Positions 448-58,147 of a stretch of 64,000 bases of DNA are shown piece by piece. The translations under genes and the position numbers were made by a program. Origin of the DNA: Bacteroidota bacterium (GTDB lineage: Bacteria > Bacteroidota > Bacteroidia > Chitinophagales > S012-47); NCBI GenBank assembly GCA_024276745.1, contig JAJRWN010000006.1, forward strand, positions 11,926-75,925, given 5' to 3'. The notes beneath the pieces were generated by a model. It made no database searches. It was not told where the DNA came from and worked only from the letters and a program-made list of their open reading frames with translations. Each line of letters begins with the position of its first letter. The first letter of the stretch is position 1.

Positions 448-992
448 TAGAAGTAGAAAAAACGGGGGATTTAAAAGATTTTCCGGGTAAAATCTTACAA
501 GGAGGCGGAGCCAACGTAACGGTGACCACGCTCGACAACATTATGAACTGGGCACGTGCCAATTCCTTATGGCCACTTACCTTTGGAACTAGTTGTTGTG
601 CCATAGAAATGATGGCTACCGGCTCTTCAAAACACGATTGGGCACGCTTTGGTACCGAAGTAGCCCGGGCAACTCCGCGACAAGCTGATTTGATTGTGAT
701 TGCAGGAACCATTGTCAATAAAATGGCTCCTGTTCTTAAGAGATTGTATGATCAAATGGCTGATCCAAAATATGTCATTGCCATGGGCGCTTGTGCTATA
801 TCGGGAGGCCCTTTTTACTATAATTCATACTCTGTGGTTAAAGGTGCCGATCATATTATTCCGGTCGATGTTTATGTGCCCGGTTGTCCACCTCGTCCCG
901 AAGCCCTGCTCTTTGGTTTGATGGAATTGCAGAAAAAGATTAAAAATGAATCAAGACGTTATCCCGAAAATAAACTGAAAGACTATGAATAG
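438..992 (+). CDS. nuoB: NADH-quinone oxidoreductase subunit B
   Basis: 184 aa with the N2-cluster cysteine motifs '[10 protein letters not shown]', 'GACAISGG' and 'VPGCPPRPE'. Confidence 0.95.
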
Positions 993-1449
993 GGAAGAGT
1001 TGACAGCTTATATCAAAAGTCTGGGAAACACGATTGAAGTCGTGGATGAACCAACACAATTCCCAACTTTTATGATACCGGCTTCCGATTGGAAAGCATT
1101 TGCTTTGACCTTACGCAATGATGAAAAATTAACATTCGATTTTCTGTATTGCCTTAGTGGGGTTGACTGGTCCGATTGTATGTGGGTGGTTTATCATTTT
1201 CGCTCAACCCAAAGCAAACAGTCGATTGTTGTGAAAGCCCGGATTGATGATAGAAATAATGCAATCATTGATACGGTAGCTGATATCTGGAAAACAGCTG
1301 AATTTCATGAACGCGAAGCCTATGACCTTTTCGGTATCCAATTTCAGGGGCATCCGGATTTACGCAGATTATTATTACCCGATGATTGGGTGGGCTGGCC
1401 CTTGAGAAAAGATTATCAGGATGATGTAAATATGGTAATGTGGAAATGA
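985..1449 (+). CDS. nuoC: NADH-quinone oxidoreductase subunit C (short, unfused form)
   Basis: 154 aa with the 30-kDa subunit signature '[31 protein letters not shown]'. Ends in TGA and overlaps the nuoD start. Confidence 0.9.
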
Positions 1450-4161: not shown

Positions 4162-4163
4162 TC

Positions 4164-4703
4164 ATGGAACAGATTATTACATACATATTATTGGCCTTGA
4201 TGCTTATCTTCTCTGTCATGACGGTTACTTCGGGAAGAATATTACGCTCGGCTGTGTATTTATTAACGGTTTTAGTCGCTACGGCAGCCATTTATTTTAT
4301 AATGCAATATCAATTCCTGGCTGCTGTTCAAATCACCCTGTATGCCGGTGGTATCGTGGTATTAATTATCTTTTCCATTCTACTGACCCATCATATTGAG
4401 CATCGAATGGAGAATCCGGTGTTTTGGAAAGCCATGATTTCGGCTCTCGCTGCTTTAGGGGCCGTTGCTATGATTGCCTGGGTGCTGAAAGATGCACAAT
4501 CGATTCAAAATGTAGCAGGATTTATTCCTCCGAAAATGGAAGATATCGGCATGGCTTTGTTATCTTATGGCAAACAGGGATATGTGCTTCCTTTTGAAGT
4601 GATTTCAGTATTGTTACTTGCCGCTATGATTGGTGCTATAGCTGTTGCCAAACCGGCATTGCTTCAATTTAAAAATAAAAATTTTAAACAGGATGATCAG
4701 TAA
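4164..4703 (+). CDS. nuoJ: NADH-quinone oxidoreductase subunit J
   Basis: 179-aa hydrophobic protein in the J position of the operon, with an ND6-like segment 'VQITLYAGGIVVLIIF'. Confidence 0.85.
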   Translation: MEQIITYILLALMLIFSVMTVTSGRILRSAVYLLTVLVATAAIYFIMQYQFLAAVQITLYAGGIVVLIIFSILLTHHIEHRMENPVFWKAMISALAALGAVAMIAWVLKDAQSIQNVAGFIPPKMEDIGMALLSYGKQGYVLPFEVISVLLLAAMIGAIAVAKPALLQFKNKNFKQDDQ

Positions 4704-5010
4704 TATACCTGCATTACATTTTCTGATTGTTGGCAGCTTGATGTTTTTTATCGGTGTTTACGGTTTCCTTACCCGGAAAAATATAATTGCCATGCTGCTT
4801 TCTGCAGAGCTGATGATCAATGCGGTGGCTTTCAATTTTGCCATACTGAACCGCTATGTCTTTCCGGTTCATCTTGAAGGTTATTTTTTCAGCCTTTTTA
4901 TCATTGCGGTGGCGGCAGCCGATGCAGCGGTTGCTATTGCCATTATTATTAACATTTACCGAAACTTCGACACCATAGAGGTAGAAGAAGTGGATGATAT
5001 GAAATATTAA
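4693..5010 (+). CDS. nuoK: NADH-quinone oxidoreductase subunit K
   Basis: The ORF track opens at 4645, but the conserved ND4L-like body begins at ATG 4693 ('MISNIPALHFLIV'). Contains the motif 'LSAELMINAV'. The start overlaps the nuoJ 3' end. Confidence 0.9.
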   Translation: MISNIPALHFLIVGSLMFFIGVYGFLTRKNIIAMLLSAELMINAVAFNFAILNRYVFPVHLEGYFFSLFIIAVAAADAAVAIAIIINIYRNFDTIEVEEVDDMKY

Positions 5011-5034
5011 ACTAAAACAGGATTAGCATTAAAC

Positions 5035-6951
5035 ATGGATTATAGCTATACCATTTGGATTGTTCTTCTTCCCCTGATATCATTTCTTTTGCTGGGATTG
5101 TTCGGCAATAAGTTTAAACCAATGGTATCAGGAATTATCGGCACTTTGGTTCTCGGTACCATAACCGTACTTTCTTATTTCACCGCCTGGCAATATTTCT
5201 TTACTGACGGAAAAGTAGATGGAGCCTATCGGGCCATCACCGGATTCAATCATGTTTGGCTTACCCTCACCGAATCACTTCATATTGATTTGGGGGTACT
5301 GCTCGACCCGATTTCGGTCATGATGCTATTGGTGGTCAGCACCATTTCCTTGATGGTACATATCTACAGCCTGGGCTACATGAAGGGTGAAGACGGTTTT
5401 TACCGCTACTATGCTTTCTTGTCATTATTTACTTTTTCCATGCTCGGTCTGGTGGTGGCTACCAATATTTTCCAAATGTATATTTTTTGGGAGTTGGTGG
5501 GTGCCTCATCCTATTTGCTCATTGGATTTTACTATAAAAAACCCAGTGCAGTAGCTGCTTCAAAAAAAGCTTTTATCGTTACCCGTTTTGCCGATTTAGG
5601 CTTTTTAATCGGTATTCTGATTTTATCCTTTTTTACCGGAACCTTTGATTTTGCCGCACTTACTAATCCATCCGGACAAGTGCTTGGAAGTATAGCCGGC
5701 ACTTCTTTCATAGGATTATCGGTTTTAAGCTGGTCGATGATATTGATTTTCATGGGCGGTGCCGGTAAATCGGCCATGTTTCCATTGCATATCTGGCTGC
5801 CTGATGCTATGGAAGGGCCAACACCGGTTTCGGCATTAATCCATGCGGCTACCATGGTAGTTGCCGGGGTTTATCTGGTAGCCCGGATGTTTCCGGTTTA
5901 CGCTATTTGGGCTCCCGAAAGTCTGGCTATTATTGCTTTTGTAGGGGCATTTACTTCTTTGTTTGCTGCTGTTATCGCTTGCACACAAACCGATATAAAA
6001 CGGATATTGGCCTATTCCACTATTTCCCAGATTGGCTATATGATGCTGGCTCTCGGAGTTGCCGGATATGGGGGTGAAGCCGGTAGTGGATTTACGGCTT
6101 CTATGTTTCACCTGACTACGCATGCCATGTTTAAAGCTTTACTATTCCTCGGAGCAGGTTCTATCATTCATGCCGTGCATAGCAATGAGATGGGAGATAT
6201 GGGCAGTTTGAGAAAATATATGCCTGTAACGGCTATTACTTTTCTCATTGCTTGTTTGTCTATTTCAGGCATCCCTCCATTTGCCGGTTTTTTCAGTAAA
6301 GATGAAATTTTGGCGGCAGCCTATACAAGTCAACCAATTTATTTCTGGGTCGAATGGTTCGTGGCCGGACTGACCGCCTTTTATATGTTTAGGCTTTATT
6401 TTGGTGTTTTTTGGGGAAAGAAAACAGAATATAAACACAAACCCAAAGAAGCACCATTAAGCATGACCATTCCATTGATTGTGCTTGCCATCGGTGCAGC
6501 CGCTGCCGGTTTTATTCCTTTCGGAGATTTTGTTTCTTCTGATGGCTTAGCCCATGAAGCGTCATTTCATTGGAATATTGCTTCACTATCAATTTTGATT
6601 GCTTTGGCAGGACTTGCTTTGGCAGCCTGGCTCTATTTACGTGAATCGAGCAGACCTGAAAAAGTTGCTGCCGGATTTAAAGGATTTTATACCGCAGCTT
6701 ATCATAAATTTTATTTCGATGAACTGTATTTGTTTATCACAAAAAAAATTGTCTTTGAGTTGATATCGCAACCCCTTGCATGGTTCGACCGGCATATTGT
6801 TGACGGATTTATGAATCTAATTGGCCGGATGATTTACCGGTTTGCTGTAGCTGTGAAACGTTTTCAGTCAGGACAAATGCAACAATATGCTTTTGTATTT
6901 GTTTCAGGAGTTGTGGTGCTGGCTTTGATCATTTTAATCTGGTGGACTTAA
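5035..6951 (+). CDS. nuoL: NADH-quinone oxidoreductase subunit L
   Basis: 638 aa with an ND5-type antiporter-like core ('WELVGASSYLLIGF', 'SALIHAATMVVAGVYL') and a long C-terminal extension, as expected for the lateral helix. Confidence 0.95.
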   Translation: MDYSYTIWIVLLPLISFLLLGLFGNKFKPMVSGIIGTLVLGTITVLSYFTAWQYFFTDGKVDGAYRAITGFNHVWLTLTESLHIDLGVLLDPISVMMLLVVSTISLMVHIYSLGYMKGEDGFYRYYAFLSLFTFSMLGLVVATNIFQMYIFWELVGASSYLLIGFYYKKPSAVAASKKAFIVTRFADLGFLIGILILSFFTGTFDFAALTNPSGQVLGSIAGTSFIGLSVLSWSMILIFMGGAGKSAMFPLHIWLPDAMEGPTPVSALIHAATMVVAGVYLVARMFPVYAIWAPESLAIIAFVGAFTSLFAAVIACTQTDIKRILAYSTISQIGYMMLALGVAGYGGEAGSGFTASMFHLTTHAMFKALLFLGAGSIIHAVHSNEMGDMGSLRKYMPVTAITFLIACLSISGIPPFAGFFSKDEILAAAYTSQPIYFWVEWFVAGLTAFYMFRLYFGVFWGKKTEYKHKPKEAPLSMTIPLIVLAIGAAAAGFIPFGDFVSSDGLAHEASFHWNIASLSILIALAGLALAAWLYLRESSRPEKVAAGFKGFYTAAYHKFYFDELYLFITKKIVFELISQPLAWFDRHIVDGFMNLIGRMIYRFAVAVKRFQSGQMQQYAFVFVSGVVVLALIILIWWT

Positions 6952-6961
6952 ATAAAAAACT

Positions 6962-8461
6962 ATGGGATTATTGTTACCACTGATTATTGTTCCGGTTTTA
7001 ACGGTTATTGTCATTGCTTTTACCCGTACGCAGCATCAAACCCGTATGACGGCTGCTATCGGTATGGGCATACAGTTATTATTATCGGTAAATCTGGTGA
7101 TTCAATATTTATTGGAACGAAAAACCGGCAATAAGGCCGAAATGCTTTTCAGAAAAAGCTGGGTTTGGTTCGATAGCCTGAATATTAAACTTGATATTGG
7201 CGTTGACGGTATCTCTGTTGCCATGATTTTATTAACGGGAATTGTGGTTTTTGCCGGTGTTTTTGCCTCATGGAAAGTCAAAAACTTAAGTAAAGAGTTT
7301 TTTATATCTCTTATATTATTGGCAACAGGCGTTTTCGGATTCTTTATCACAATCGATTTGTTTGTGCTGTTCTTATTTTATGAAATGGCCGTCATTCCCA
7401 TGTATTTGCTAATCGGAATCTGGGGTACGGGTCCGAAAGAATACTCTGCCATGAAACTAACCTTGATGCTGATGGCCGGTTCTGCGCTTATTCTGGTAGG
7501 AATTCTCGGTATTTATTTTAATTCGGCTCCTGATGGTGGTGCGCTTACCTATAATTTGCTGGAGATTGCAAAAATCAATATACCACTGCCGGCACAACGC
7601 ATGTTTTTTCCCTTGACTTTTGCTGGTTTTGGCGTTTTAAGTGCCTTGTTTCCTTTCCATACCTGGTCGCCCGATGGTCATGCTTCGGCCCCTACGGCTG
7701 TTTCCATGCTGCATGCAGGCGTATTGATGAAACTGGGAGGCTATGGTTGCCTGCGGGTAGCGATGTTCCTGATGCCTCAGGCTGCTCACGAAATGGCCAT
7801 CATTTTCCTTGTGCCAACCGGCATAAGTGTTATCTACGGTGCTTTTGTTGCCGTCAGTCAAAAAGATTTAAAATATATCAATGCTTATTCATCGGTAAGC
7901 CATGTGGGTTTAATCTTGTTTGCCCTGCTGATGCTGAATAAAACCGCTATTACCGGTGCGGTTTTGCAAATGGTTTCTCACGGTTTGATGACCGCCTTAT
8001 TCTTTGCATTGATTGGGATGATTTACGGAAGAACTCACACCAGGATGATAGATAAAATGGGTGGTTTGCTAAAAGTAATGCCTTTTCTTGGTGCTGCTTA
8101 TATTATTGCCGGTTTTGCATCATTGGGCCTACCCGGATTAAGTGGCTTTGTTGCCGAAATGAATATTTTCGTGGGTGCTTTCCAGGTGAGTGATACTTTT
8201 CATCGTGTACTAACTATTTTAGCGGTATCAAGTATAGTTGTAACGGCTGTTTACGTGCTCAGGGTAGTTGCACGGCTATTATTGGGCCCTATTGAAAAAG
8301 CTGAATACGAAATGATTGAGGACGGACATTGGTACGAAAAATTTTCTACCGGATTACTCATTGTTGCGATAGCCGGTATGGGTATGATACCTCTTTGGCT
8401 TACCGATATGATACGCGATAGCCTTGATCCGATTATGACTAAACTGGCTTCAAGTATTTAA
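6962..8461 (+). CDS. nuoM: NADH-quinone oxidoreductase subunit M
   Basis: 499 aa with ND4-type motifs 'YEMAVIPMYLLIGIWG' and 'MLHAGVLMKLGGYG'. Confidence 0.95.
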   Translation: MGLLLPLIIVPVLTVIVIAFTRTQHQTRMTAAIGMGIQLLLSVNLVIQYLLERKTGNKAEMLFRKSWVWFDSLNIKLDIGVDGISVAMILLTGIVVFAGVFASWKVKNLSKEFFISLILLATGVFGFFITIDLFVLFLFYEMAVIPMYLLIGIWGTGPKEYSAMKLTLMLMAGSALILVGILGIYFNSAPDGGALTYNLLEIAKINIPLPAQRMFFPLTFAGFGVLSALFPFHTWSPDGHASAPTAVSMLHAGVLMKLGGYGCLRVAMFLMPQAAHEMAIIFLVPTGISVIYGAFVAVSQKDLKYINAYSSVSHVGLILFALLMLNKTAITGAVLQMVSHGLMTALFFALIGMIYGRTHTRMIDKMGGLLKVMPFLGAAYIIAGFASLGLPGLSGFVAEMNIFVGAFQVSDTFHRVLTILAVSSIVVTAVYVLRVVARLLLGPIEKAEYEMIEDGHWYEKFSTGLLIVAIAGMGMIPLWLTDMIRDSLDPIMTKLASSI

Positions 8462-8470
8462 ACAAACATT

Positions 8471-9895
8471 ATGAGTTGGGATCAATTATTATTCATGCGT
8501 CACGAAATTATCCTTATCATACTTATGTTGGTGATGATTATCGCCAATCTATTGACTAAGGATGAGAATAAGGAAAAACTAATCCATCTTGCTTCTATTC
8601 TATTTTTTGCCAATCTGATTGCCGGTTTTTTGCCTGCCCGCTATGGCAGTGCTTTCGGGTCTATGTTTGTTGCCAATCAATCCGGTATCATGATGAAAAA
8701 CATACTTAATATTGCCACTTTCATTGTGATACTCCAATCCGGTGAATGGCTCAAAAAAGAAATTGAAAATAAACCCCGGATAGCCGATTTCTTTATCCTC
8801 ATACTAGCGAGCCTTATTGGTATGTTCTTTATGATATCATCAGGCCATTTTCTGATGCTTTTTATCGGTCTTGAATTGGCTACCATTCCGGTAGCAGCCC
8901 TGGCAGCCTTTGAACAAGGCAAACGAAAATCGGCAGAAGCCGGTGTAAAACTTATTTTACTCTCTACATTTTCGGCTGCCATTATGCTTTTTGGACTCGG
9001 TATGATTTATGGAAGTACCGGTTCCATGTACTTCAATGAAGTACTTACTAATTTTAACGGTAGTGCTTTAGGTATGCTTGGTTTTGTTTTCTTCTTTTCC
9101 GGATTGGCTTTTAAAATTTCAATAGTTCCTTTCCATCTGTGGACAGCCGATGTTTATGAAGGAGCTCCTGTAAATGTCACATCTTATCTTTCTGTAGTTT
9201 CGAAAGCAGCCGCTTTGTATATCCTTATGGTTGTTTTTTATACCGTCTTTATCAATATCTCCGCTTCCTGGACAGAGATTTTATATATCGTTTCAATTTT
9301 AACCATGACGCTTGGAAATCTGTTTGCCATACGACAAAAAAACATCAAACGTTTTATGGCTTTTTCATCTATTGCCCAGGCCGGTTTTATTTTGCTTGGC
9401 ATTATAGGCGGTGCAGGCATGGGGATGACTGTGGTGATGTATTTTATCTTGATTTATGTCTTTTCCAATTTAGCTGTATTTGGCATAGCAACAAGTGTTT
9501 ACCGGCATAGTGGTAAAGAAAAAATCAGGGATTTGGACGGATTTTACCAAACGAACCCGCGTCTAAGCTTAATTATGATGCTGGCATTATTTTCATTGGC
9601 CGGGATTCCGCCTGTAGCCGGATTTTTTGGAAAATTCTTTTTGTTTACAGCAGCTGCTTCCAAAGGCTATTTCTGGCTGGTATTGATTGCGGTTTTGAAT
9701 GCAACTATATACCTGTATTATTATTTGATGGTGGTTAAGGCCATGTTTATCAATCAAAGTGATGAAGCCATTGATACGATTCAGAGCGATTTTCCTATGC
9801 GTTTGAGTCTGGCTCTTTGTGCTATTGCTTTGATAGCCATCGGATTTATCGGCCCGCTATACGAATGGATTAATAACGTTGCAACTGCTTTTTAA
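8471..9895 (+). CDS. nuoN: NADH-quinone oxidoreductase subunit N
   Basis: 474 aa with ND2-type motifs 'GLELATIPV' and 'FHLWTADVYEGAP'. Confidence 0.9.
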   Translation: MSWDQLLFMRHEIILIILMLVMIIANLLTKDENKEKLIHLASILFFANLIAGFLPARYGSAFGSMFVANQSGIMMKNILNIATFIVILQSGEWLKKEIENKPRIADFFILILASLIGMFFMISSGHFLMLFIGLELATIPVAALAAFEQGKRKSAEAGVKLILLSTFSAAIMLFGLGMIYGSTGSMYFNEVLTNFNGSALGMLGFVFFFSGLAFKISIVPFHLWTADVYEGAPVNVTSYLSVVSKAAALYILMVVFYTVFINISASWTEILYIVSILTMTLGNLFAIRQKNIKRFMAFSSIAQAGFILLGIIGGAGMGMTVVMYFILIYVFSNLAVFGIATSVYRHSGKEKIRDLDGFYQTNPRLSLIMMLALFSLAGIPPVAGFFGKFFLFTAAASKGYFWLVLIAVLNATIYLYYYLMVVKAMFINQSDEAIDTIQSDFPMRLSLALCAIALIAIGFIGPLYEWINNVATAF

Positions 9896-9905
9896 ATAAA
9901 TAATC

Positions 9906-10262
9906 ATGTTTATCAACCACGGAAAACATATAGAACAGGAAATTGACGGACTAAGATGCCGCATTGTTGAAAAAGGGGCTAATGCTGAACGTGCAGAATT
10001 TCTAAAAAAACTACTTGAATATAATAATCTTGAAGTAAGAATTGCAGAAGAACCCCGGAAAGAAACCGTTGAAGGGGAAGAAGCTACTCCTATTACCTTT
10101 TCAATAGGAGTTACCGATATAACATTCAATCCTGTGGTGGCTCTTTATGAAAGGGATTTGCGAACGCCTGACGGTAAAATTGTTTCTCCGGCTTTTTGGA
10201 ATCAGCAAGCTCCGGCAACAGGTGAACATTCCTGGTATTGGCGCTACGACAGGGAAAAGTAA
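9906..10262 (+). CDS. hypothetical soluble protein, apparent last cistron of the nuo operon
   Basis: 118-aa ORF whose ATG lies 10 nt after the nuoN stop, followed by a 164-nt gap. No TM segment or signal peptide, a single Cys, and an acidic centre 'EEPRKETVEGEEATP'. I recognise no family. Confidence 0.6.
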   Translation: MFINHGKHIEQEIDGLRCRIVEKGANAERAEFLKKLLEYNNLEVRIAEEPRKETVEGEEATPITFSIGVTDITFNPVVALYERDLRTPDGKIVSPAFWNQQAPATGEHSWYWRYDREK

Positions 10263-10391
10263 AAGGTTTATAACGATTTACCCTTTTTCTGTTTTCCGGC
10301 TTCATCTTGTTTAAATCATTTTCCAATCATGTGTTTTGAAAATAATGACCTATCCGGAAAATCAATATGGCAATCTTGCTGTTCATTTCCT

Positions 10392-10399
10392 TACTTTTG
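10392..10399 (+). promoter_or_regulatory. Bacteroidota-type -7 promoter box (TActTTTG)
   Basis: Exact match to TAnnTTTG, 27 nt upstream of the ATG at 10427. A chance match in AT-rich DNA is possible. Confidence 0.4.
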
Positions 10400-10426
10400 A
10401 CTGTTTAATATCTATCCAATCTGTCG

Positions 10427-11659
10427 ATGAAGAATTATTTGCTATTGGTCTTATCTGCTTTTTGTTTCATGCCTTTTAGCTTAGCCGGAGGCTTTCAGGT
10501 TTACTTACAGGGAAATCGCCAGATTGCCATGGGCCTTTGCGGAGTAGGGCTTGTGCAAGATGCAGCCGGTCTTTCGATTAATCCTGCATCATTATCTTTT
10601 CTAAAGCAAAACAGTGTATATCTTGGTGGAAACTTGATACTTGCCAATACGGCTTACCGGCAGCAATATCCCGGACAATATACCACCAACAGCCTTCCTT
10701 CAACGGGGACACCTTTTAATGTTTATGCAAATGTTGGTTTGATGGCCGATAAAAGAATGCAACTTGGCGTGGGCGTTTATACACCTTACGGCAGTAGTAT
10801 TGCCTGGCCTGAGGGATGGATTGGGCGATTTGCCATGGTGGAGACTAAATTGCAAACGATTTATTATCAGCCGACAATAGCCTACAGAATTTCCGAAAAG
10901 CTTGGTGTTGGAGCCGGCTTTATTTATGCCAGAGGATCGATGCTGTTGCGTAAAGCCCTTCCTATAGATGGGCAGGACGGCTCCGAAGGAAGTCTGTCGA
11001 TGCAGGGTAGTGGAAATGGATTCGGATTCAATATATCGGCCTTTTACAAAGCAGGAAAACAAATCAATATTGGTTTTGATTACCAGTCATCAGTAAAATT
11101 GTTACTTTTAAACGGACAGGCTGATTTTAGCGTTCCATTGTCCTTAGCAGCTTCTTTTCCGGATACCAAGTTTTCAAGTTCCATAACATTACCGGCCATG
11201 CTTTCCTTCGGTTTCGGATATCATCCTTCTCATGAAATCACACTTGCTTTTGATATTAATTATAATCTGTGGAGCAGCTACGATACTTTATCCTTTGACT
11301 TTGCAGTGAATAACTCCACGTTAAAAGATATTCATTCGCCCAGGCTCTACCGGAATGCAGTGGCTTTTCGATTAGGTGCCGAATATCTTTTAAAAAATAA
11401 ATGGGCATTCCGGGGTGGTGCATTTTATGATATGAGCCCCGTTCAAGATGGATATTTAACCCCTGAAACTCCCGATTCGGATAAAATAGGAATAAGCTTT
11501 GGCTTTGGTGTAAAACCCATTGACCGGCTTAGCATCGATGCTTCTTTTTTATATGCCGAAGGAGCTTTGCGCAGTGATACCAATATAGAAAGCGGCTTTT
11601 CAGGTAGCTATAAAACAAAAATATTGATACCCGGTTTAAGTTTGCAATTTAGTTTTTAA
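10427..11659 (+). CDS. FadL/OmpP1-family outer-membrane transport protein
   Basis: Signal peptide, an N-terminal hatch-like 'GGFQVYLQGNRQIAMG', an alternating beta-strand pattern throughout, and a C-terminal aromatic end 'LSLQFSF'. Confidence 0.8.
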   Translation: MKNYLLLVLSAFCFMPFSLAGGFQVYLQGNRQIAMGLCGVGLVQDAAGLSINPASLSFLKQNSVYLGGNLILANTAYRQQYPGQYTTNSLPSTGTPFNVYANVGLMADKRMQLGVGVYTPYGSSIAWPEGWIGRFAMVETKLQTIYYQPTIAYRISEKLGVGAGFIYARGSMLLRKALPIDGQDGSEGSLSMQGSGNGFGFNISAFYKAGKQINIGFDYQSSVKLLLLNGQADFSVPLSLAASFPDTKFSSSITLPAMLSFGFGYHPSHEITLAFDINYNLWSSYDTLSFDFAVNNSTLKDIHSPRLYRNAVAFRLGAEYLLKNKWAFRGGAFYDMSPVQDGYLTPETPDSDKIGISFGFGVKPIDRLSIDASFLYAEGALRSDTNIESGFSGSYKTKILIPGLSLQFSF

Positions 11660-11672
11660 TGTATTGTTATAT

Positions 11673-12977
11673 ATGAATCGTGTTCCTAAAATTTATGTGA
11701 TTTTTCTCCTTGCCTTGTTTTCAGGTCTGTTGGCTTGTCATCCGCTATTGCCGGTACCCGAATTTACTTCAGGAGAGGCTGATTTTACGAATTACCTTGC
11801 CGTAGGAAATTCGTTGACTGCCGGTTTTTCTGATGCTGAGCTTTATCTTGAAGTGCAAAGCAATAGTTATCCTGCCCTTATTGCTGCTCAGATGAAAACC
11901 TCGTTTAAGCAACCTTTGGTAAAAGATGAATATGGCGTTTTAGGACCACACCTGACCTTAAGCTTAAGCACGAATTGCCTGGGAGACCCTGGTTTAAGAC
12001 CTGTTCCGGTTACAGGTATTCTTGATTCGGGCAATACAAATAATATTTTTCAATCGGAAGGACCTTTTAATAATATGGGTGTTCCCGGCATTCGTGCCAT
12101 CCATTTGGGATTGCCCGGATATGGTTTGCTAAATCCTTATTTCGGACGTTTTCAGTCTTCTATGCTCAGCAGCGTATTGAACGATGCCATGCTCATACAG
12201 CCTACCTTTTTTACCTGTTGGCTGGGTAGCAATGATATTTTAACCTATGCTTTAAATGGTGGCAACGATAATAATAATCCGTTTTTTAATATCTCAGACA
12301 AAGCTATGTTCGAGTCTTCCATGAATGTAATATTATCAACCCTTACGGCTAACGGAGCGAAGGGAGTAGTGGCCAATATTCCCGATATATCAGGCATTCC
12401 TTTTTTTAACTTAATTCCCTATGACGGTTTGATACTCGATCAGGCGGGTGCCGATGCTTTGACTCAATATTATGCAAGTGAAGGTATTGTATTTGATGTA
12501 GGGAATAATCCATTTATTATTGAAGATCTATCTCAGTCATCACCCGGTTTCAGGCCCATGCAAGCAGGCGAATTGCTTTTGATGTCGATACCTCAGGATT
12601 CTTTGAAATGTGGCTCATGGGGGAGCTTAAGACCTATACCGGCCAAATATGTGCTTAATACCGGAGAAGTGGATCTTATCCAACAGGCTACCCGGGATTT
12701 TAATGACATTATTGCTAATCTTTGCGATTTGTATAATCTGCCTTTACTTGATATGAATCATTACTTCGAATCGGTAAAAAGCGGTATTTATTTTAATGGG
12801 ATTAATTTTTCTTCGAAATATATTTCAGGGGCAACCTTTTCACTTGATGGAATACATCCTACCCAAAGAGGATATGCCATGATTGCCAATGAGTTTATCC
12901 GGGTGATTAACAATCGCTATCATGCTAGCATCCCCTGGGTAGATGTAGGCGCATATCCGGGCGTTAAATTTCCCTGA
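11673..12977 (+). CDS. SGNH/GDSL-family hydrolase lipoprotein
   Basis: Lipobox 'SGLLAC'. SGNH blocks: I 'AVGNSLTAGF' (Ser kept, Asp replaced by Asn), III 'WLGSNDIL', V 'DGIHPTQRGY'. The ORF track opens at TTG 11664; the first ATG is 11673, 13 nt after the FadL stop. Confidence 0.8.
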   Translation: MNRVPKIYVIFLLALFSGLLACHPLLPVPEFTSGEADFTNYLAVGNSLTAGFSDAELYLEVQSNSYPALIAAQMKTSFKQPLVKDEYGVLGPHLTLSLSTNCLGDPGLRPVPVTGILDSGNTNNIFQSEGPFNNMGVPGIRAIHLGLPGYGLLNPYFGRFQSSMLSSVLNDAMLIQPTFFTCWLGSNDILTYALNGGNDNNNPFFNISDKAMFESSMNVILSTLTANGAKGVVANIPDISGIPFFNLIPYDGLILDQAGADALTQYYASEGIVFDVGNNPFIIEDLSQSSPGFRPMQAGELLLMSIPQDSLKCGSWGSLRPIPAKYVLNTGEVDLIQQATRDFNDIIANLCDLYNLPLLDMNHYFESVKSGIYFNGINFSSKYISGATFSLDGIHPTQRGYAMIANEFIRVINNRYHASIPWVDVGAYPGVKFP

Positions 12978-38329: not shown

Positions 38330-39413
38330 ATGACCAACGAACAATTAAAATCTATTCAAGCCCGGCTTGAAGCCCTCAGGAGGTATCTTTGACCTGAGTA
38401 ACAGAGAATCGATTGTGCACGATTTGCTTGAACAAGCGGCAAGCAATACATTTTGGAATGATTCGAAAAATGCGGAATCGGTACTGCGAAGAATAAAAAA
38501 ACATAAGTATTGGATTGATGCCTATCATTTGGTATCTGAAATTGTAGCTGATGTGAGCGTATTACTTGAGTTTCAGCAAGAGGGTGATGCCAGTGAGGAA
38601 GAAGTGGAAGAAAAATATCTTGAAGCAATTAAAGCACTTGAAGATATTGAATTTCGATCTACACTCAACAAAGAAGAAGATGCACTTGATGCCGTAATGA
38701 CCATCAACAGCGGGGCAGGAGGAACCGAATCCTGCGATTGGGCAAGTATGCTCTTGCGGATGTACACCATGTGGGCCGAAAAAAATAATTATAAAGTTGC
38801 AGAACTCGACCGTGTTGATGGCGATGTAGCCGGTGTGAAATCGGTAACGATAGAAATAGCCGGTGAATTTGCCTATGGTTACCTGAAAGGTGAAATCGGA
38901 GTACATCGCCTGGTAAGAATATCACCTTTCGATTCCAATAAAAGAAGACATACTTCCTTTGCCTCGGTATTTGTATATCCTTTAGTTGACGATTCTATCG
39001 AAATTGAAATTAATCCTGCTGATATCGAATGGGATACTTTCAGATCGGGAGGAAAGGGAGGTCAGAACGTGAATAAAGTAGAAACTGCCGTTCGATTGCA
39101 CCACATACCTTCCGGATTTGTAGTAGAATGCCAGCAAGAACGTTCGCAACTGCAAAATAAAGAGAAAGCCATGAAACTCTTGCAGTCGAGATTGTATGAA
39201 CAAGAAATCAGCCGTAGAAATGAAGCCCGAGATAAAGTTGAAAGCACAAAAAAAAGTATTGGATGGGGCTCCCAAATCAGAAGTTATGTGCTGCATCCCT
39301 ACAAAATGGTAAAAGATTTGCGTACCGGACATGAAACAGGGAATACCCAGGCTGTAATGGATGGTGATTTGAACCCATTCTTAAAAGCCTTTTTGATGAA
39401 ACCTAAAAATTAA
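38330..39413 (+). CDS. prfB: peptide chain release factor 2, requires a programmed +1 frameshift: join(38330..38389,38391..39413)
   Basis: Frame 0 gives '[20 protein letters not shown]' and then TGA at 38390. The +1 frame continues '[13 protein letters not shown]...' and carries the RF2 'SPF' ('RISPFDS') and 'GGQ' ('GKGGQNVNK') motifs. The site CTT TGA C is preceded by AGGAGG. Confidence 0.95.
38378..38393 (+). promoter_or_regulatory. prfB +1 frameshift cassette (AGGAGG-TAT-CTT-TGA-C)
   Basis: SD-like AGGAGG at 38378..38383, a 3-nt spacer, the slippery CTT and an in-frame TGA followed by C. The layout matches the classical RF2 autoregulatory site. Confidence 0.9.
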
Positions 39414-40257: not shown

Positions 40258-41214
40258 ATGGGATTATTTAATAAAATTTTCAATACAAAAGATAAAGAAA
40301 ATCTGGAACAAGGTATTCAAAAAACCCGGGAAGGATTCTTTGGAAAAATTACAAGAGCTGTTGCAGGGCATTCCAAAATTGATACTAATTTTCTCGATCA
40401 TCTTGAAGATATTTTAATTAGTTCTGACGTTGGCATTGACACCAGTTTGAAAATTATTGATCGAATAGAACGGAGAGTGGCCCGCGATAAATTTATCAAT
40501 ACCTCTGAACTCAATACCATTTTGCGCGATGAAATAAGTGTTATGTTAAGTGAGCATAATACTGAAGATATTGAATCGTACCGGATTCCCAAAAATATCA
40601 AACCCTTTGTGATTATGGTTGTAGGGGTGAACGGTGTGGGCAAAACCACCACCATCGGCAAATTGGCCTACCGTTTTAAGCAGGAAGGATACCGTGTATT
40701 GTTGGGTGCTGCCGATACTTTCAGGGCTGCCGCTATCGATCAATTGCAAATTTGGGCCGACCGGGTAGATGTGCCTTTGGTAAAAAAAGAAATGGGTTCT
40801 GATCCGGCTTCAGTCGCTTTCGATACGGTAAAATCGGCCCTTGCCAAAGATGCGGATATTGTGATTATCGACACGGCCGGCCGGCTGCATAATAAAGTGA
40901 ATTTGATGAATGAGTTGTCGAAGGTGAAAAATGTTATGCAAAAAGTTATTCCTGATGCACCACATGAAGTCATGTTGGTTTTGGACGCATCTACCGGACA
41001 AAATGCACTTGAACAGGCCAGACATTTTATTAAAGCAACCGAAGTTAATGCCCTTACAATCACTAAACTTGACGGTACGGCTAAAGGAGGTGTTATTCTA
41101 GGTATTGCCGATCAATTTAGTATTCCGGTGAAATATATCGGAGTGGGTGAAGCCATGGATCATTTACAGGTTTTCAACCGGCAAGAATTTATTGATGCCC
41201 TTTTTAGCGAATGA
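40258..41214 (+). CDS. ftsY: signal recognition particle receptor FtsY
   Basis: 318 aa with an NG domain: 'GVNGVGKTTTIGKLA', 'DTAGR', 'TKLDGTAKGG'. Confidence 0.95.
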   Translation: MGLFNKIFNTKDKENLEQGIQKTREGFFGKITRAVAGHSKIDTNFLDHLEDILISSDVGIDTSLKIIDRIERRVARDKFINTSELNTILRDEISVMLSEHNTEDIESYRIPKNIKPFVIMVVGVNGVGKTTTIGKLAYRFKQEGYRVLLGAADTFRAAAIDQLQIWADRVDVPLVKKEMGSDPASVAFDTVKSALAKDADIVIIDTAGRLHNKVNLMNELSKVKNVMQKVIPDAPHEVMLVLDASTGQNALEQARHFIKATEVNALTITKLDGTAKGGVILGIADQFSIPVKYIGVGEAMDHLQVFNRQEFIDALFSE

Positions 41215-51846: not shown

Positions 51847-52212
51847 ATGCAAAAGTATTTGTCAATCGTTTTAATCTTGATGCTTCTACCGGCCTGTTCA
51901 GGCAACAAAGGTAAGCCTGCAAACAACATTTTGCAAACCGAAAAGATGATACCTGTTCTTGAGGATATTCATCTTGCCGAGGCATACGTATTTAATCAAC
52001 ATATGAATACAAATTTGAGTACTCAATGGTTAAATTATTATTATGATGTAATCTACCGGATTCACCAAACCGATTCTGTACAATTTAGCCAAAGTCTTGA
52101 TTATTATGAGTCAAAGCCCGAAAAGCTGCTTGATATCTACGATAAACTCCTTACAGATATGAGCATCAGGCAGGAAGCAATCAGTGAAGCCCTTTACGAT
52201 ACTATTAATTAA
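51847..52212 (+). CDS. small lipoprotein (DUF4296-like, tentative)
   Basis: Lipobox 'LMLLPACSG'; about 120 aa. The family name is from memory. Confidence 0.6.
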   Translation: MQKYLSIVLILMLLPACSGNKGKPANNILQTEKMIPVLEDIHLAEAYVFNQHMNTNLSTQWLNYYYDVIYRIHQTDSVQFSQSLDYYESKPEKLLDIYDKLLTDMSIRQEAISEALYDTIN

Positions 52213-52219
52213 GTGTTTA

Positions 52220-55200
52220 ATGAAATCCTTTAAAATATACTATATAGGGTATACCTTTTTTATAAGTCTGTTGGTATTTGCTTATTTTTTTTCTTCAAAA
52301 CACGAGCTGAAACCGTTTTGGAAAACTCAAAATGAAGACGAAACCATTTCGATGTATGACAGAATGGACTTGGCAATAAAGCAGGAGTTTGGGCATACCA
52401 TGGACCCGGCATTGGGTAAAGTCCCTCGAGAGCGATTACAAAGCGCTATGGCATATATCAAAAGTCATCAACACAGCCGGGCCGCCATATCGGGTATAAG
52501 CTGGAAAGAGCGAGGCCCTGATAATGTTGGCGGTCGCACCCGGGCCATTATGATTGATCCCAATGATGCAACAGGAAAAACGGTATTTGCCGGTAGTGTC
52601 GGTGGAGGGTTATGGAAAACGACCGATATAACCGTGAAAAATCCATCTTGGTCGCCTGTCAATGATTTAATGGCAAATCTTGCTATCACTTGTCTGGCTT
52701 ACGACCCGGGCACAACTACAACCATGTATTTTGGCACCGGTGAAGGCTGGTTTAACCTCGATGCGATTAAAGGTGACGGTATTTTTAAATCAACCAATAG
52801 CGGAACAAGCTGGACGCAATTATCCAGTACAACAGGTTCTACTTTTGACTATATTCAAAAAATTGTAGTGACTTCTTCAGGAACTGTTTTGGCCGCTACC
52901 AGAAGTGGTGGTATTCAACGCTCAACCAATGGGGGTACTTCGTGGACTTCTGTTCAATCTGGTAGGATAGCCGATTTGGAAATAGCTGCCAATGGTGACA
53001 TTTTTGCTTCTATCGGCATTTTTACTACTGACGGTATCTATAAATCTACCGATGACGGGGCTACATGGACAAAGCTGACTTCCGGGTTACCATCTTCAGG
53101 CTATTACAGGATAGAATTGGCTTGCGCACCATCCGATGCCAACCGGATTTATGCTTTGTTTTGTGATGCCAGTACCTATGATTGTTACGGTATTTATAAA
53201 TCTACCAATGGAGGTTCCTCCTGGACTTCGGTAACTAATCCGAATACATCGGGTGGAGGAAATTTTGCCAACGGACAGGCATGGTATAATTTGATTGCTG
53301 CCGTAGATCCAAATAATGCTGATCGTGTTTATATCGGTGGACTTGATGTTTTAGTCTCTTCTAATGCCGGCAGTTCCTGGACAGAGGTAAGCCAATGGTA
53401 TGGTAATGGATTTGAGTATATGCATGCCGATAATCATGCTATTGTTTACAAAACCGGTAGTTCATCTATCATTTATTTTGGCAATGACGGAGGCATTTAC
53501 GGCACAACGAATGGAAATACTTCTAGTCCGGATATAAAGCAAAAACTCTCAAGCTACGATGTTACCCAATTTTACGGTTGCGCTATTCATCCTACAGCTT
53601 ATACCGATTACTTTTTGGCAGGTGCTCAAGATAATGGTAGTCATCGTTTCAATTCTGCCGGAAATAAATCTACCGTTGAAGTGAGTGGGGGAGACGGTGC
53701 TTTTTGTAATATCGACCAAAACCAACCTAATTATCAGTTTACCCAATACGTTTACAATAATTATTACCGGAGTACCGATGGGGGTAAATCTTTTTCGCAA
53801 GTCATCAATAATAATAATGGGGTTTTTATTAACCCTTCAGATTACGATAATAGTGCGAATATATTATATGCAGCCTATACCAATGGGAATTATTTTAGAT
53901 GGGATAATCCTCAAACCGGTACTACCACAAAATCTATCGGTGCATCATTCACCGGTTATGTGTCGGCCGTAACGGTTGACCCGAATACATCAAACCGGGT
54001 TTGGTTTGGTACCGGTTATTACAATGGTATTAATGGTGGCTACGTGTATAAGGTGGACAATGCCAATACCAATAGCCCAACCGTAACGGATATGACATCG
54101 GCTTCCATGCCGGCCAACGGAAGTGTATCATGTATTGAAATTGAAAATGGAGATGCCAATCATTTGCTGGTAACTTTTTCAAACTATGGGGTTAGCTCGG
54201 TATGGGAAACGACTAATGGAGGCAGCTCATGGACAGCTGTTGAAGGCAATTTGCCCGATATGCCTGTCCGTTGGGCATTATTTAACCCAAACAATAATGC
54301 ACAAGCTTTACTCGCTACAGAATTGGGCGTGTGGTCTACCGATAATATTAACGGCACTTCTACCAACTGGGCAACTTCTAACAGCGGACTTGCCAATGTC
54401 CGGGTTGATATGTTGCAGTACAGAACATCCGATAAGCTTGTAATTGCTGCTACGCATGGAAGGGGGCTCTTTTCCTCCGATATATTTACCAGCGTTCATG
54501 CTGATTTTGATGCTGATAAAGTAAGAACCTATACCGGAAAAGCAGTTCAATTTACCGATGCTTCCTATAAAGCAAGCAGTTGGTCGTGGACTTTTGGAGA
54601 CGGTGGAACTTCAACAAGTCAAAATCCCAGTCACAGCTATTCCTCTCCGGGATGGTATAATGTGTCACTGAGCATTAACAGCGGGGCAAGCACAAAAACA
54701 AGGAATAATTATTTATTGGTATTGCCCAATAGAGGTACACCTTATCTGGCTGCTGACGGAGGGAATTTTGATGTAAATCCCAATGACTTTGGGGCTGATA
54801 CGATTTATGGAACGGGGTGGGAGCGCGGCTCTTCAACGGTGAGCGGGAAGCAAGGTACTTACAGCGGTTCTTATGCCTGGGTTACCGGACTGACAGCAAG
54901 CAATTATTATAACTCATCTGAAGCATATCTATATACACCTAATTTCAGCATGGCTGCCAGCGGAACCTATACTATTAAATTCAGGAGTAGATTCAAAACC
55001 GAATCAGCTTACGATGGATTCAGAGTGGAATATTCGCTCAATAAAGGCGATACATGGACTTATCTGGGCAGTTCCGGTGGCAGTTGGTATAATACGGCCA
55101 ATACCTCATTTCAAACTTCATTTCCGATCAATGAACCCTATTTCTCAGGCAATCTTTCTTCTGCTTTCAATCTGTATAGCTATAGTACCTCAAGCCTGGC

Positions 55201-55843
55201 CGGTAATGCAAACGTGGCTTTTCGAATAGCCTTTAAATCAGACAATACCGTAAACTATCCGGGGGTGGCTATCGATAATTTTGAAATTACCGGACCTACC
55301 AATTTGCTGGCTGCCGATATTTTATCTTTCAATGCCACTAGAGTGAGCAAGGATATACTTCTGAATTGGAAAAGCGATCAGGAAATAGATTTATCGGAAT
55401 ATATCTTGCAACGTTCTGATGATGGACTTCATTTTACCGACATTGGCAGTGTTCAATCCGGCAAAACAGCTTATAACTATCTTGATAAATTCGCCCCTGT
55501 TTCTATTTTGTATTATCGATTGAAAATGCTTGATAATGACGGTTCGCTAAACTATTCGGATTTGAAAAGTGTTGACCCTCTGCTTGAATCAATACCTCTT
55601 TCGTTGCAGGTTTATCCTAATCCTGCCTCCCACGTCTTGCATATTTCAACCATGAACGGCAAGAACAATCAGATGAAGCTTGTTGATATTTTCTCAATTG
55701 AGGGGAAACATATCGCACATTATGAATGGATTTCAAAAGATTTAAATCAGGCGATTGATGTTTCAAAATATTCTAAAGGGGAATACCTGCTGCTGCTTAC
55801 TCAGGGTTCAACGCAGCAAGTACGCCCTTGGTTTAAATACTAA
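52220..55843 (+). CDS. large secreted BNR/Asp-box beta-propeller protein with PKD-like and MAM-like domains and a T9SS C-terminal domain
   Basis: Seven Asp-box motifs (for example 'STNSGTSWTQL', 'STNGGTSWTSV', 'STDDGATWTKL', 'STNGGSSWTSV', 'SSNAGSSWTEV', 'TTNGGSSWTAV'). PKD-like 'WSWTFGDGGTSTSQNPSHSY'. T9SS tail 'VYPNPASHVLHIST...KGEYLLLL'. The likely start is ATG 52220; the ORF track opens at 52184. Confidence 0.8.
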   Translation: MKSFKIYYIGYTFFISLLVFAYFFSSKHELKPFWKTQNEDETISMYDRMDLAIKQEFGHTMDPALGKVPRERLQSAMAYIKSHQHSRAAISGISWKERGPDNVGGRTRAIMIDPNDATGKTVFAGSVGGGLWKTTDITVKNPSWSPVNDLMANLAITCLAYDPGTTTTMYFGTGEGWFNLDAIKGDGIFKSTNSGTSWTQLSSTTGSTFDYIQKIVVTSSGTVLAATRSGGIQRSTNGGTSWTSVQSGRIADLEIAANGDIFASIGIFTTDGIYKSTDDGATWTKLTSGLPSSGYYRIELACAPSDANRIYALFCDASTYDCYGIYKSTNGGSSWTSVTNPNTSGGGNFANGQAWYNLIAAVDPNNADRVYIGGLDVLVSSNAGSSWTEVSQWYGNGFEYMHADNHAIVYKTGSSSIIYFGNDGGIYGTTNGNTSSPDIKQKLSSYDVTQFYGCAIHPTAYTDYFLAGAQDNGSHRFNSAGNKSTVEVSGGDGAFCNIDQNQPNYQFTQYVYNNYYRSTDGGKSFSQVINNNNGVFINPSDYDNSANILYAAYTNGNYFRWDNPQTGTTTKSIGASFTGYVSAVTVDPNTSNRVWFGTGYYNGINGGYVYKVDNANTNSPTVTDMTSASMPANGSVSCIEIENGDANHLLVTFSNYGVSSVWETTNGGSSWTAVEGNLPDMPVRWALFNPNNNAQALLATELGVWSTDNINGTSTNWATSNSGLANVRVDMLQYRTSDKLVIAATHGRGLFSSDIFTSVHADFDADKVRTYTGKAVQFTDASYKASSWSWTFGDGGTSTSQNPSHSYSSPGWYNVSLSINSGASTKTRNNYLLVLPNRGTPYLAADGGNFDVNPNDFGADTIYGTGWERGSSTVSGKQGTYSGSYAWVTGLTASNYYNSSEAYLYTPNFSMAASGTYTIKFRSRFKTESAYDGFRVEYSLNKGDTWTYLGSSGGSWYNTANTSFQTSFPINEPYFSGNLSSAFNLYSYSTSSLAGNANVAFRIAFKSDNTVNYPGVAIDNFEITGPTNLLAADILSFNATRVSKDILLNWKSDQEIDLSEYILQRSDDGLHFTDIGSVQSGKTAYNYLDKFAPVSILYYRLKMLDNDGSLNYSDLKSVDPLLESIPLSLQVYPNPASHVLHISTMNGKNNQMKLVDIFSIEGKHIAHYEWISKDLNQAIDVSKYSKGEYLLLLTQGSTQQVRPWFKY

Positions 55844-55851
55844 ATTTAATT

Positions 55852-56238
55852 CTACATTCCTAATAAATACCATTTTCCATCGCGGTTGATGCATTTAATG
55901 CTTCCTTTATCACCATTTTTGAATTTTACCGGAACACTGGCTTTATCATCTTCAATACTTGCATCTCCTGTAACTTCTCAATCCTTGAAAAAGTCAACAA
56001 ATTTATCATGTAGATTTTCAGCAGCTCCACATATTTTTTCTACATCTTTATCACTTTCGCCTTCCGGATCGCATAAGGTGGATAAAATGCTCAAATCATC
56101 TGAATTGGCCGCATCAAAAATAGCCTGAACAACGCTTTCAGGACTGGCGTGTACATCAGTACTGCCAGCTGACGAACCACATGAACTCATCAACAACATG
56201 CTTGTTGAAATGAGTAATAAAAAAGTTAATTTTTTCAT
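55852..56238 (-). pseudogene. small lipoprotein gene interrupted by an in-frame TGA (codon at 55978..55980)
   Basis: ATG 56238 opens 'MKKLTFLLLISTSMLLMSSCGSS...DKFVDFFKD', then TGA. The same frame stays open for 41 more codons ('EVTGDASIEDDKASVPVKFKNGDKGSIKCINRDGKWYLLGM') to TAG at 55852..55854. The truncated 86-aa product (55978..56238) may still be made. Confidence 0.6.
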
Positions 56239-56464
56239 AATGTTAGTTTTGCCCTCAAGATAATTAATATTCACAAACAGCTCACTGTTTATTTTTCTGG
56301 GTGATGTGGATAATACCTTATGCTGCATTTGGATGATTTATTTTAACTTTAACAATACACAATTGCTTAATAACATGGAATATAGCTAATCTCTCTTCAG
56401 TAAGTTTTATTCTGAATATAATTAAATACAAAGGAATTATTCATTATTTACTAAAACTACGCTT

Positions 56465-56830
56465 ATGAAAAACATGAACAAAATCGGTCGAATGATTGTC
56501 GGCTTAATGTATCTCATCTTTGGTTTGGTACATATGATGAAAGCTTCAGAAATGGGAGGCATTGTACCAGATTGGATGCCCGGTACTGAAATATGGGTTT
56601 ATCTTATTGGTGTATTACTCATTATGGGAGGAGCTGCTCTGATTATTGATAAATTCACCTATCTGGCAGCTATGGGATTAGCTCTTCTGATGATGGTATT
56701 TATTCTTACACTTCATATTCCCGGACTTTTTAAAGAAGGTGTGGATATGATGGATGTAATGCCTATGCTACTCAAAGATATGGGTTTGATGGGGGCATGC
56801 CTGATTATTGCCCATGAAGCGAAATCTTAA
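56465..56830 (+). CDS. Met-rich small membrane protein (DoxX-like, tentative)
   Basis: 121 aa with four hydrophobic helices and 18 Met residues counted by eye. Confidence 0.6.
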   Translation: MKNMNKIGRMIVGLMYLIFGLVHMMKASEMGGIVPDWMPGTEIWVYLIGVLLIMGGAALIIDKFTYLAAMGLALLMMVFILTLHIPGLFKEGVDMMDVMPMLLKDMGLMGACLIIAHEAKS

Positions 56831-56869
56831 TGGGATATTTTACTCAAGAGTATTAATTACATGAAAAGA

Positions 56870-56898
56870 AAGTGCGAAACTAATGCTTCGCACTTTTT
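56870..56898 (+). terminator. intrinsic terminator
   Basis: Hairpin AAGTGCGAA / TTCGCACTT (9 bp, 8-nt loop) running into TTTTT, 40 nt after the stop at 56830. Confidence 0.75.
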
Positions 56899-57070
56899 AT
56901 TTAACACCTCACAATCGTCTGCTATTTCTTACTGTCTTTATATTATCCTTTGGGTAGATCTTTTTTTATTGTTTTGTCGCGAATACAACTATTTAATGTT
57001 TTGTAAATGAGTTGTTTTACGGATTAAAATAAATAATGTTCAGATTTATCCTACAAAATAATTATTGGCA

Positions 57071-57562
57071 TTATTTTGTTGTAAAATAGACTAGCATAGT
57101 ATTGTTATGGTCGGAAATACTGAAGGGTGAAAGGTCAGTGTAAGGATGTATTCGATGATAGGGTATAACAAATTCGTAGATCCAGTATTGATGTCCAAAT
57201 AAGTCTGTTTTGGTTTCTTCCCAGTCAATTAATCCTGCTCTGAAACTGAAAGTATCCACATCAAGTTGTTTTATTCCGGGTGCTATAAGAGTGTCGTTGA
57301 TTTCAATTTGCAAATTGGGTGTTCCCGGAACAACATCGTAGTATATTTTGGAACCAATATCTCCAACTACAGCCAAATCAGGATTTGAAGCTCCGTTTAT
57401 GCCTGAATCCCATAACAGGCTATCGGTAGAGCGTAAACTATCCAGTTGAACGACTTCCACTTTTTGAATAACAACAGTATGAGCATTTCTTTTTTTGCAT
57501 CCTGAAGCAATGAGTAAAAACAAAAAGAAGGAGAGAAAAATAGAAGTTTTATTCTTCATCAT
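57071..57562 (-). CDS. hypothetical lipoprotein
   Basis: 163 aa with signal peptide and lipobox 'FLFLLIASGC'. I recognise no family. Confidence 0.6.
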   Translation of the reverse strand: MMKNKTSIFLSFFLFLLIASGCKKRNAHTVVIQKVEVVQLDSLRSTDSLLWDSGINGASNPDLAVVGDIGSKIYYDVVPGTPNLQIEINDTLIAPGIKQLDVDTFSFRAGLIDWEETKTDLFGHQYWIYEFVIPYHRIHPYTDLSPFSISDHNNTMLVYFTTK

Positions 57563-57589: not shown

Positions 57590-58147
57590 TTAGAATTTAT
57601 ATCCTTTAATTTCATTTGCATTATACTCTAAACCCAGTCCCATAACAATACGATTTACAAAATTAAAATAGGCAACAATAAGCGTGGCATCTAAAATAGC
57701 CCGATCATCAAAATCAGAATTTATTAATAGATTCATAATTTCTGATGGCCGGTTGCTAGGGTCAATGGTTAAGCGCTCAGCCCATTCACACAGAATTTGA
57801 TCGGCAGTGTTAAGATCAAGCTTTTTAAAATTACGTTTAAGTTGTTCTACCCGTGAAGTATTTTTCCAGAAATGATTGAGTGCTTCCCCGTGATGTGCCT
57901 GACAGTATTCGCATTGATTGGCAGCCGATACTACGACACCAATCATTTCACGTTGATAGCGTTTTAAGGGCGATTGCCCAAACATGAGTGTCATATACAG
58001 CTTCATATGATCGATAATGCTATCAGGATTGAGACTTTGAATTTTATGTACTTCTGCAAGTTTTCCACGGCTCTTTTTTATTTGATCATAAATCTCTTTC
58101 AGTTTTCCGTCAGCTTGTTTTTCATCAATTACTTGTATATAAGCCAT
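57590..58147 (-). CDS. carboxymuconolactone decarboxylase (CMD)/AhpD-like peroxidase-related enzyme
   Basis: 185 aa with the CMD-type redox motif 'ANQCEYCQAHHGE'. Confidence 0.75.
   Translation of the reverse strand: MAYIQVIDEKQADGKLKEIYDQIKKSRGKLAEVHKIQSLNPDSIIDHMKLYMTLMFGQSPLKRYQREMIGVVVSAANQCEYCQAHHGEALNHFWKNTSRVEQLKRNFKKLDLNTADQILCEWAERLTIDPSNRPSEIMNLLINSDFDDRAILDATLIVAYFNFVNRIVMGLGLEYNANEIKGYKF

Follow-up and report, generated by a model that had tools for sequence, protein, structure and literature searches.

In bacterial selenocysteine insertion, which depends on bSECIS, SelB and tRNA-Sec, the sites that are recoded normally align with cysteine in homologous proteins. UGA is also the leakiest of the bacterial stop codons; near-cognate read-through inserts tryptophan, cysteine or arginine, and TGA-C and TGA-A are leaky contexts according to work on E. 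coli. Translation of UGA as glycine is known only in Gracilibacteria and Absconditabacteria, where it goes together with the loss of RF2; the lineages using this genetic code 25 lack RF2 and possess a tRNA-Gly(UCA) (PMC8629427). In-frame stop codons as such are widespread in bacterial genes and are mostly short-lived polymorphisms (Belinky et al. 2021, PMC7918605). The window analyzed here, i.e. the whole stretch of 64,000 nucleotides, contains a conserved lipoprotein gene that is interrupted by a TGA, and our analysis indicates that this gene probably carries a recent, real nonsense allele.

The ancestral full-length gene is located on the minus strand (55852..56238) and comprises 128 codons including the internal TGA, followed by a TAG, as delimited by its translation, by end-to-end matches to the proteins P0001 and P0002 and by synteny with five related loci (L001-L005). 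Its start codon is the ATG at 56238, and codons 1-20 (56179..56238, minus strand; MKKLTFLLLISTSMLLMSSC) read as a signal peptide and lipobox with Cys20 as the lipidated residue. The signal region opened by this ATG, MKKLTFLLLISTSMLLMSSCGSS, is composed of a basic n-region, a hydrophobic core and the lipobox, reading MKK, then LTFLLLISTSMLL, then MSSC, and the stretch MSSCGSS is kept in both P0001 and P0002 when these are aligned with the joined product. Judged by this pattern, which fits the type described by PROSITE PS51257, the joined product is predicted to be a lipoprotein and a substrate of signal peptidase II. Codons 21-86 (55981..56178, minus strand) form the head of the mature protein, which according to the family alignment and a structure model of P0001 represents the helical half of an NTF2-like domain; the alignment places the invariant residues Cys56 and Cys70 and an acidic loop (LCDPEGESDKDVEKIC) in this part. 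The in-frame TGA is codon 87 (55980..55978, minus strand; context GAT-TGA-G). It is followed by a tail of 41 sense codons (codons 88-128; 55855..55977, minus strand), which contains the whole beta-sheet and the RDGKWYL motif, and by the original TAG of the full-length gene (55852..55854, minus strand), with orthologues ending at the same aligned residue. The lipoprotein signal, the in-frame TGA, the 41 open codons and the TAG had all been named in the original prediction, and each of its coordinates is correct.

The locus is represented in the NCBI annotation by P0003, a truncated open reading frame of 116 amino acids (55978-56328, minus strand), with one member on one contig, which starts at an ATG at 56328 and thus 30 codons ahead of the lipoprotein signal. 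The orthologue P0002 and the architecture of the signal peptide argue for ATG 56238, and not ATG 56328, as the true start. The 90 nt upstream of ATG 56238 are also open in L001, and P0001 and P0005 show similar N-terminal extensions; this stretch is probably not coding but a conserved 5' region. The annotated protein would thus begin at a start codon that is probably wrong and lies too far upstream, and end at a premature stop, and the locus would be better annotated as a 128-codon gene with an internal stop, or with GGA at this position if sequencing reads show so.

A profile search retrieved 383 relatives from the protein database. In a search with the joined product itself, the closest relative, P0001, aligns with residues 1 to 128 at about 82-83% identity (E=2e-62), P0002, from an uncultured Chitinophagales metagenome-assembled genome (MAG), is 70% identical from end to end, and P0004 shows 53% identity; searches of the protein database and of collections of genomes and metagenomes gave no relative above 83% identity. 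The codon aligned to the TGA is GGT in L001 and GGA in L002 to L005, which places the lesion a single G>T step (on the coding strand) from GGA. Glycine occupies this column in 21 of 25 relatives derived from such loci and in 69 of 75 aligned database relatives, the other six of which have alanine (5) or methionine (1), and a stop at this position was found neither among the 25 nor among the 75. All 75 aligned relatives continue for 41 to 47 residues beyond the TGA column and terminate with a near-invariant RDGKWYL ending. Scans of genome and metagenome contigs yielded 23 further loci (L008-L030) from Bacteroidota, Chlorobiota, Chloroflexota, Myxococcota and Pseudomonadota, all of them uninterrupted. 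It had been proposed originally to ask which sense codon orthologues carry at the TGA and whether the tail is conserved; the answer is glycine, encoded by GGT or GGA, in front of a conserved tail, and the opposite case, orthologues ending at the position of the TGA, occurs in none of the 75 relatives. The tail had also been proposed to be the true C-terminus partly on the basis of a DGKWYL ending as in small NTF2-like lipoproteins of Bacteroidota, which is borne out by the ending of the relatives.

The original prediction further regarded an open run of 41 codons behind a stop as rare (a few percent), which was overstated. With a GC content of the window of 37.8%, the chance of 41 stop-free codons calculated from base composition is about 6%, and empirically at least 41 stop-free codons follow 15% of 78 long open stretches in the window. 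Most of these runs are accounted for by a following gene that happens to be in frame or by overlap with an adjacent gene read in a different frame. Clear chance runs in intergenic DNA, in frame with the preceding gene, occur twice, namely 45 codons after the open reading frame 9906..10262 and 59 codons after DoxX (56465..56830), an intact gene near the lipoprotein gene; neither run is protein-like or matches a family. The former was considered as a second split gene, which would be a sign of poor assembly, and was rejected as a chance run because it is rich in Cys and Phe and has no family match. These runs, at 10263-10397 and 56831-57007 (both plus strand), can serve as negative controls for findings of open tails after a stop in this AT-rich genome. 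Thus, it is homology that identifies the tail as coding, whereas the openness of the run alone is weak evidence, and comparison of orthologous codons rather than openness of the reading frame is the right test for cases of a stop with an open tail.

UGA is a genuine stop codon in this organism. Among the 51 open reading frames of at least 110 amino acids in the window, 38 end with TAA, 10 with TGA and 3 with TAG, and TGA terminates nuoC (985..1449) and ftsY (40258..41214) at the expected protein length in each case. In addition, prfB, the gene for RF2 (38331-39413, plus strand; ATG at 38331, PCRF and RF-1 domains), contains the programmed +1 frameshift site AGGAGG-TAT-CTT-TGA-C at 38376..38393, with the +1 frame leading on to 39413. 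nuoC, ftsY and the prfB recoding site had been put forward before as proof that TGA is a real stop, and all three hold. Eight of the ten natural TGA stops in the window are followed by T, an excess that suggests selection for a strong termination context, and the internal stop is TGA-G; if the leakiness rule derived from E. coli is applied, it looks like neither an evolved terminator nor a leaky context. As a side observation, the order of open reading frames at 97-12977 (plus strand) resembles a nuo operon of 11 subunits (nuoA, B, C, D, H, I, J, K, L, M, N) from which nuoE, F and G are missing, and a FadL/TodX-type outer-membrane transporter follows at 10427-11659; Pfam supports nuoC and the transporter only, and the other subunits were assigned by size and order of the open reading frames.

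Purifying selection has acted on the tail as it has on the head. Compared with L001, the tail shows a dS of 0.92 and a dN of 0.12 (omega=0.13), and omega for the head is 0.16. When L001 is taken as the sister and L002 as the outgroup, the tail has acquired 5 synonymous and 3 nonsynonymous changes on the window's own branch, and the head 4 of each. The ratio in the tail rejects neutrality (P=0.007 against an expectation of 82% nonsynonymous changes) and does not differ from that in the head. The tail contains no indels and no extra stops, and the lack of such secondary lesions indicates that the stop is very young. These substitution patterns indicate translation of the tail throughout practically the entire history of the lineage, and by a rough estimate the stop arose no earlier than in the final quarter of the branch, probably far more recently. 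However, the lack of decay in the tail is equally expected from a sequence error or from tolerated read-through.

The gene is embedded in a conserved neighbourhood. In the closest relatives, a cation-efflux protein, a CMD-family protein, DoxX and the lipoprotein gene are followed by a convergent PKD/T9SS protein, and the other genes of the syntenic 8 kb in the window have the same lengths as their orthologues. The convergent neighbour in the window (52184..55843, plus strand) encodes a PKD protein of 1219 aa whose C-terminus is a Por/T9SS sorting domain (Pfam PKD and Por_Secre_tail). Its stop codon is separated from the lipoprotein gene by 8 nt if the tail is included and by 134 nt if it is not, and the same neighbour is found at 10 nt in L001 and at 18 nt in L002. 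At the other convergent junctions in the window the gap is at most 45 nt in eight of nine cases and 240 nt in the remaining one, in agreement with the earlier argument that the tail restores a tight junction. Between DoxX and the CMD-family gene (57590-58147) there is a lipoprotein-like open reading frame of 163 aa (57071-57562, minus strand; MMKNKTSIFLSFFLFLLIASGCKK...) that matches no Pfam family; since no gene of comparable size is called at this place in the syntenic loci L001 and L002, it looks like a lineage-specific insertion.

The structure model of the orthologue P0001, which is 83% identical, was based on an alignment of 75 sequences and stands in for the window protein. It reaches a pLDDT above 90 over the whole domain, with helices at residues 48-99 (window residues 33-84) and all strands at 103-142. 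Foldseek searches of the PDB with this model found the CaMKII-association-like domain 3h51, SgcJ, the NTF2-like protein 3blz and ketosteroid isomerase (probability about 1.0, TM-scores of 0.4-0.5) as well as the N-terminal domain of PBP2a, and a sequence profile gave weak matches to the CaMKII hub and to 3k7c ('NTF2-like transpeptidase'). The predicted fold is therefore NTF2-like, with the helices preceding all strands, which agrees with the classification as an NTF2-like lipoprotein suggested originally. Window residue 87 corresponds to Gly102 of P0001 and falls on the linker that connects the last helix of the model with its first strand, so that the TGA removes every beta-strand of the domain. 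The lipidated helical remnant of 66 residues would, judging from this model, be unable to take the family fold.

As a by-product of this analysis, which is of modest interest in itself, a widespread and essentially unannotated extracytoplasmic NTF2-like family emerged, with about 380 relatives and a Cys-bracketed acidic loop. The domain of approximately 95 amino acids is almost entirely unnamed and occurs in Bacteroidota, Chloroflexota, Chlorobiota, Myxococcota and Pseudomonadota, either in a lipoprotein, in a protein with a Sec signal or as the C-terminal domain of longer proteins of 230-620 aa; the latter are mostly from Chloroflexota or from unclassified metagenome contigs (L013, L022, L024, L026, L028). 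Invariant residues are Cys56, Cys70, Pro58, Asp63, Asp65, Phe84, Trp123 and Tyr124, and the cysteine pair around the acidic loop might, speculatively, form a disulfide-stapled and possibly metal-binding loop. Scans of the joined product and of both halves against Pfam and NCBIfam gave nothing significant. DUF4878 (PF12870) is similar in that it comprises small extracytoplasmic proteins, often lipoproteins, with an NTF2-like alpha+beta fold, and a few relatives of the window protein are labelled DUF4878 by NCBI or UniRef. PF12870 matches 13 of the 75 relatives weakly, the best match (22.2 bits, E=1.8e-4) being below the gathering threshold of 24.1 bits, and it does not match the joined window protein even at E-values of up to 10. 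In contrast to DUF4878, the family found here has a signature of its own, consisting of LCDPxGENDGDTxxIC with its two invariant cysteines and of RDGKWYL. The gene at 55852..56238 (minus strand) is thus best described as coding for a small NTF2-like lipoprotein of an uncharacterized family that is at best distantly related to DUF4878. PF27998 is listed for two of the relatives in precomputed data.

The most plausible explanation for the interrupted gene, and in our view the probable one, is a recent and real nonsense allele in a conserved NTF2-like lipoprotein gene. A single G>T substitution would have turned the glycine codon 87 (GGA) into TGA, RF2 would read this UGA as a stop, and translation would end after residue 86. 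The product would then be a lipidated helical fragment lacking the entire beta-sheet, which is almost certainly non-functional, and the 41 downstream codons would be an orphaned C-terminus that still looks like coding sequence because the mutation is very recent, its age being on the scale of strain-level polymorphisms. Full-length protein might be made at most in trace amounts by the ordinary near-cognate leakage of UGA, and nothing suggests that such leakage is selected for. The locus combines the features of a young nonsense allele: a sense codon one step away, a homologous and lesion-free tail in frame, and a working stop codon. Two observations count against this explanation, namely that the truncated form is found in one NCBI record only (P0003) and that no relative is more than 83% identical to the window protein.

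Of the alternatives, an error in base calling or consensus formation is the strongest, but it is less likely than a real allele. In this case the organism would have GGA and an intact 128-codon gene, and a spurious T at 55980 (minus strand) would have been introduced by sequencing, by polishing or by calling the consensus of a metagenome. An error would account well for a single-base lesion in a gene whose remainder is indistinguishable from an intact gene under selection, and for the presence of the allele in just one record. In addition, the close relatives are all derived from metagenomes or MAGs, and the source of the window is probably a MAG as well, so that a base that is poorly covered or in the minority may have found its way into the consensus. 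However, the site is located outside any homopolymer or repeat (context TTCAAGGAT TGA GAAGTT), and the assembly looks clean, as the 64 kb contain no frameshifts and no other broken gene. The absence of any other split gene from the 64 kb, together with the equal length of the syntenic genes, makes an error-prone assembly unlikely. Moreover, substitution errors in assembled consensus sequences are rare in comparison with real nonsense polymorphisms. A real allele is the likelier of the two explanations, because homopolymers and repeats are absent from the site, the other genes of the 64 kb are intact and equal in length to their orthologues, and polymorphic stops are common; we thus infer that the allele is present in cells and not merely in the consensus.

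A programmed or selectively maintained read-through is highly improbable. It would depend on a near-cognate tRNA, on a suppressor tRNA-Gly(UCA) whose gene lies elsewhere or on insertion of selenocysteine, and it would yield the full-length lipoprotein at an attenuated or regulated level. The leakiness of UGA and the intact tail, which is under purifying selection on the window's own branch, would be compatible with such a mechanism, and the ancestral glycine coincides with the meaning of UGA in genetic code 25. The base following the stop, however, is G and not the C or A of the leaky contexts, and near-cognate tRNAs would place tryptophan, cysteine or arginine at a column that takes almost only glycine or alanine. 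In addition, none of the orthologues examined has the stop, not even the relatives with 82% and 70% identity, and the RNA lacks stimulatory features: the 86 nt from the TGA onwards have a minimum free energy of -7.9 kcal/mol (z=+0.55), with 143 of 200 shuffled sequences folding at least as well, and searches of the sequence after the TGA gave no Rfam match near threshold and no SECIS-like hairpin. Selenocysteine was rejected as a candidate, as there is no bSECIS stem-loop 3' of the UGA and the relatives have glycine or alanine (one methionine) and not the cysteine that would be expected. A search of the 64-kb window for a suppressor or selenocysteine tRNA found no tRNA gene at all, and the organism has an RF2 that is autoregulated through UGA. 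The idea that the tail might be expressed separately was also rejected, since the tail has no in-frame ATG, GTG or TTG before codon 128.

Read-through has nevertheless been argued for some in-frame stops, which would be tolerated in this way (Belinky et al. 2021, PMC7918605). The specific variant in which the TGA is maintained in the population, and low-level decoding by a near-cognate tRNA, or by a suppressor that resembles tRNA-Gly(UCA) and has its gene outside the window, leads to a reduced, possibly condition-dependent amount of full-length lipoprotein, is again highly improbable, marginally more so than read-through in general. If true, it would represent a natural 'attenuating' in-frame stop of the kind discussed by Belinky et al. 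(2021), in a lineage of Bacteroidota that otherwise uses UGA as stop. Of the three options left by the original prediction, nonsense mutation and sequencing or assembly error therefore remain, while programmed read-through is without support, as the stop is not conserved, no stimulatory structure accompanies it and the context on its 3' side is not markedly leaky.

Genome-wide reassignment of UGA, either to glycine as in Gracilibacteria and Absconditabacteria or to tryptophan as in other lineages, had been excluded from the outset and is refuted by the UGA-dependent frameshift site of prfB and by normal TGA termination in the window: glycine at the TGA column of the orthologues is the sole point in its favour and a coincidence, 10 of the 51 long open reading frames end in TGA, the other genes of the window are free of internal TGA codons, and the Chitinophagales relatives and T9SS cargo point to a Bacteroidota-like lineage, for which reassignment is not known (PMC8629427). 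That the gene truly ends at the TGA and the tail is just a chance run in intergenic DNA can likewise be dismissed, for although stop-free runs of 45 and 59 codons do occur behind two intact genes in the window, the C-termini of hundreds of relatives show residue-by-residue homology to the tail, which extends to the near-invariant RDGKWYL, and none of the 75 aligned relatives ends at the TGA column.

The recent nonsense allele favoured here can finally be compared with the known systems introduced above. With bacterial selenocysteine insertion the locus shares an in-frame UGA and an open, conserved frame behind it; in contrast to selenocysteine sites, the site in the window has neither a hairpin nor an Rfam match, its homologues have glycine or alanine, and it is located in a structural linker and not in a redox centre. 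With genetic code 25 it shares a UGA where homologues have glycine, but the organism possesses RF2 with a UGA-dependent frameshift site and many genes that end in TGA. The likeness is closest to nonsense polymorphisms of the type described by Belinky et al. (PMC7918605), in which a stop codon arises by one substitution in a conserved gene, dN/dS downstream of the stop is below 1, and the stop is young. Whereas that study based its argument for tolerated read-through on orthologous stops shared by at least two species, the stop in the window is found in one record and in no other genome. The interrupted lipoprotein gene is thus nothing out of the ordinary: it carries a nonsense lesion of one base, or possibly an error in base calling, rather than a site of programmed recoding.
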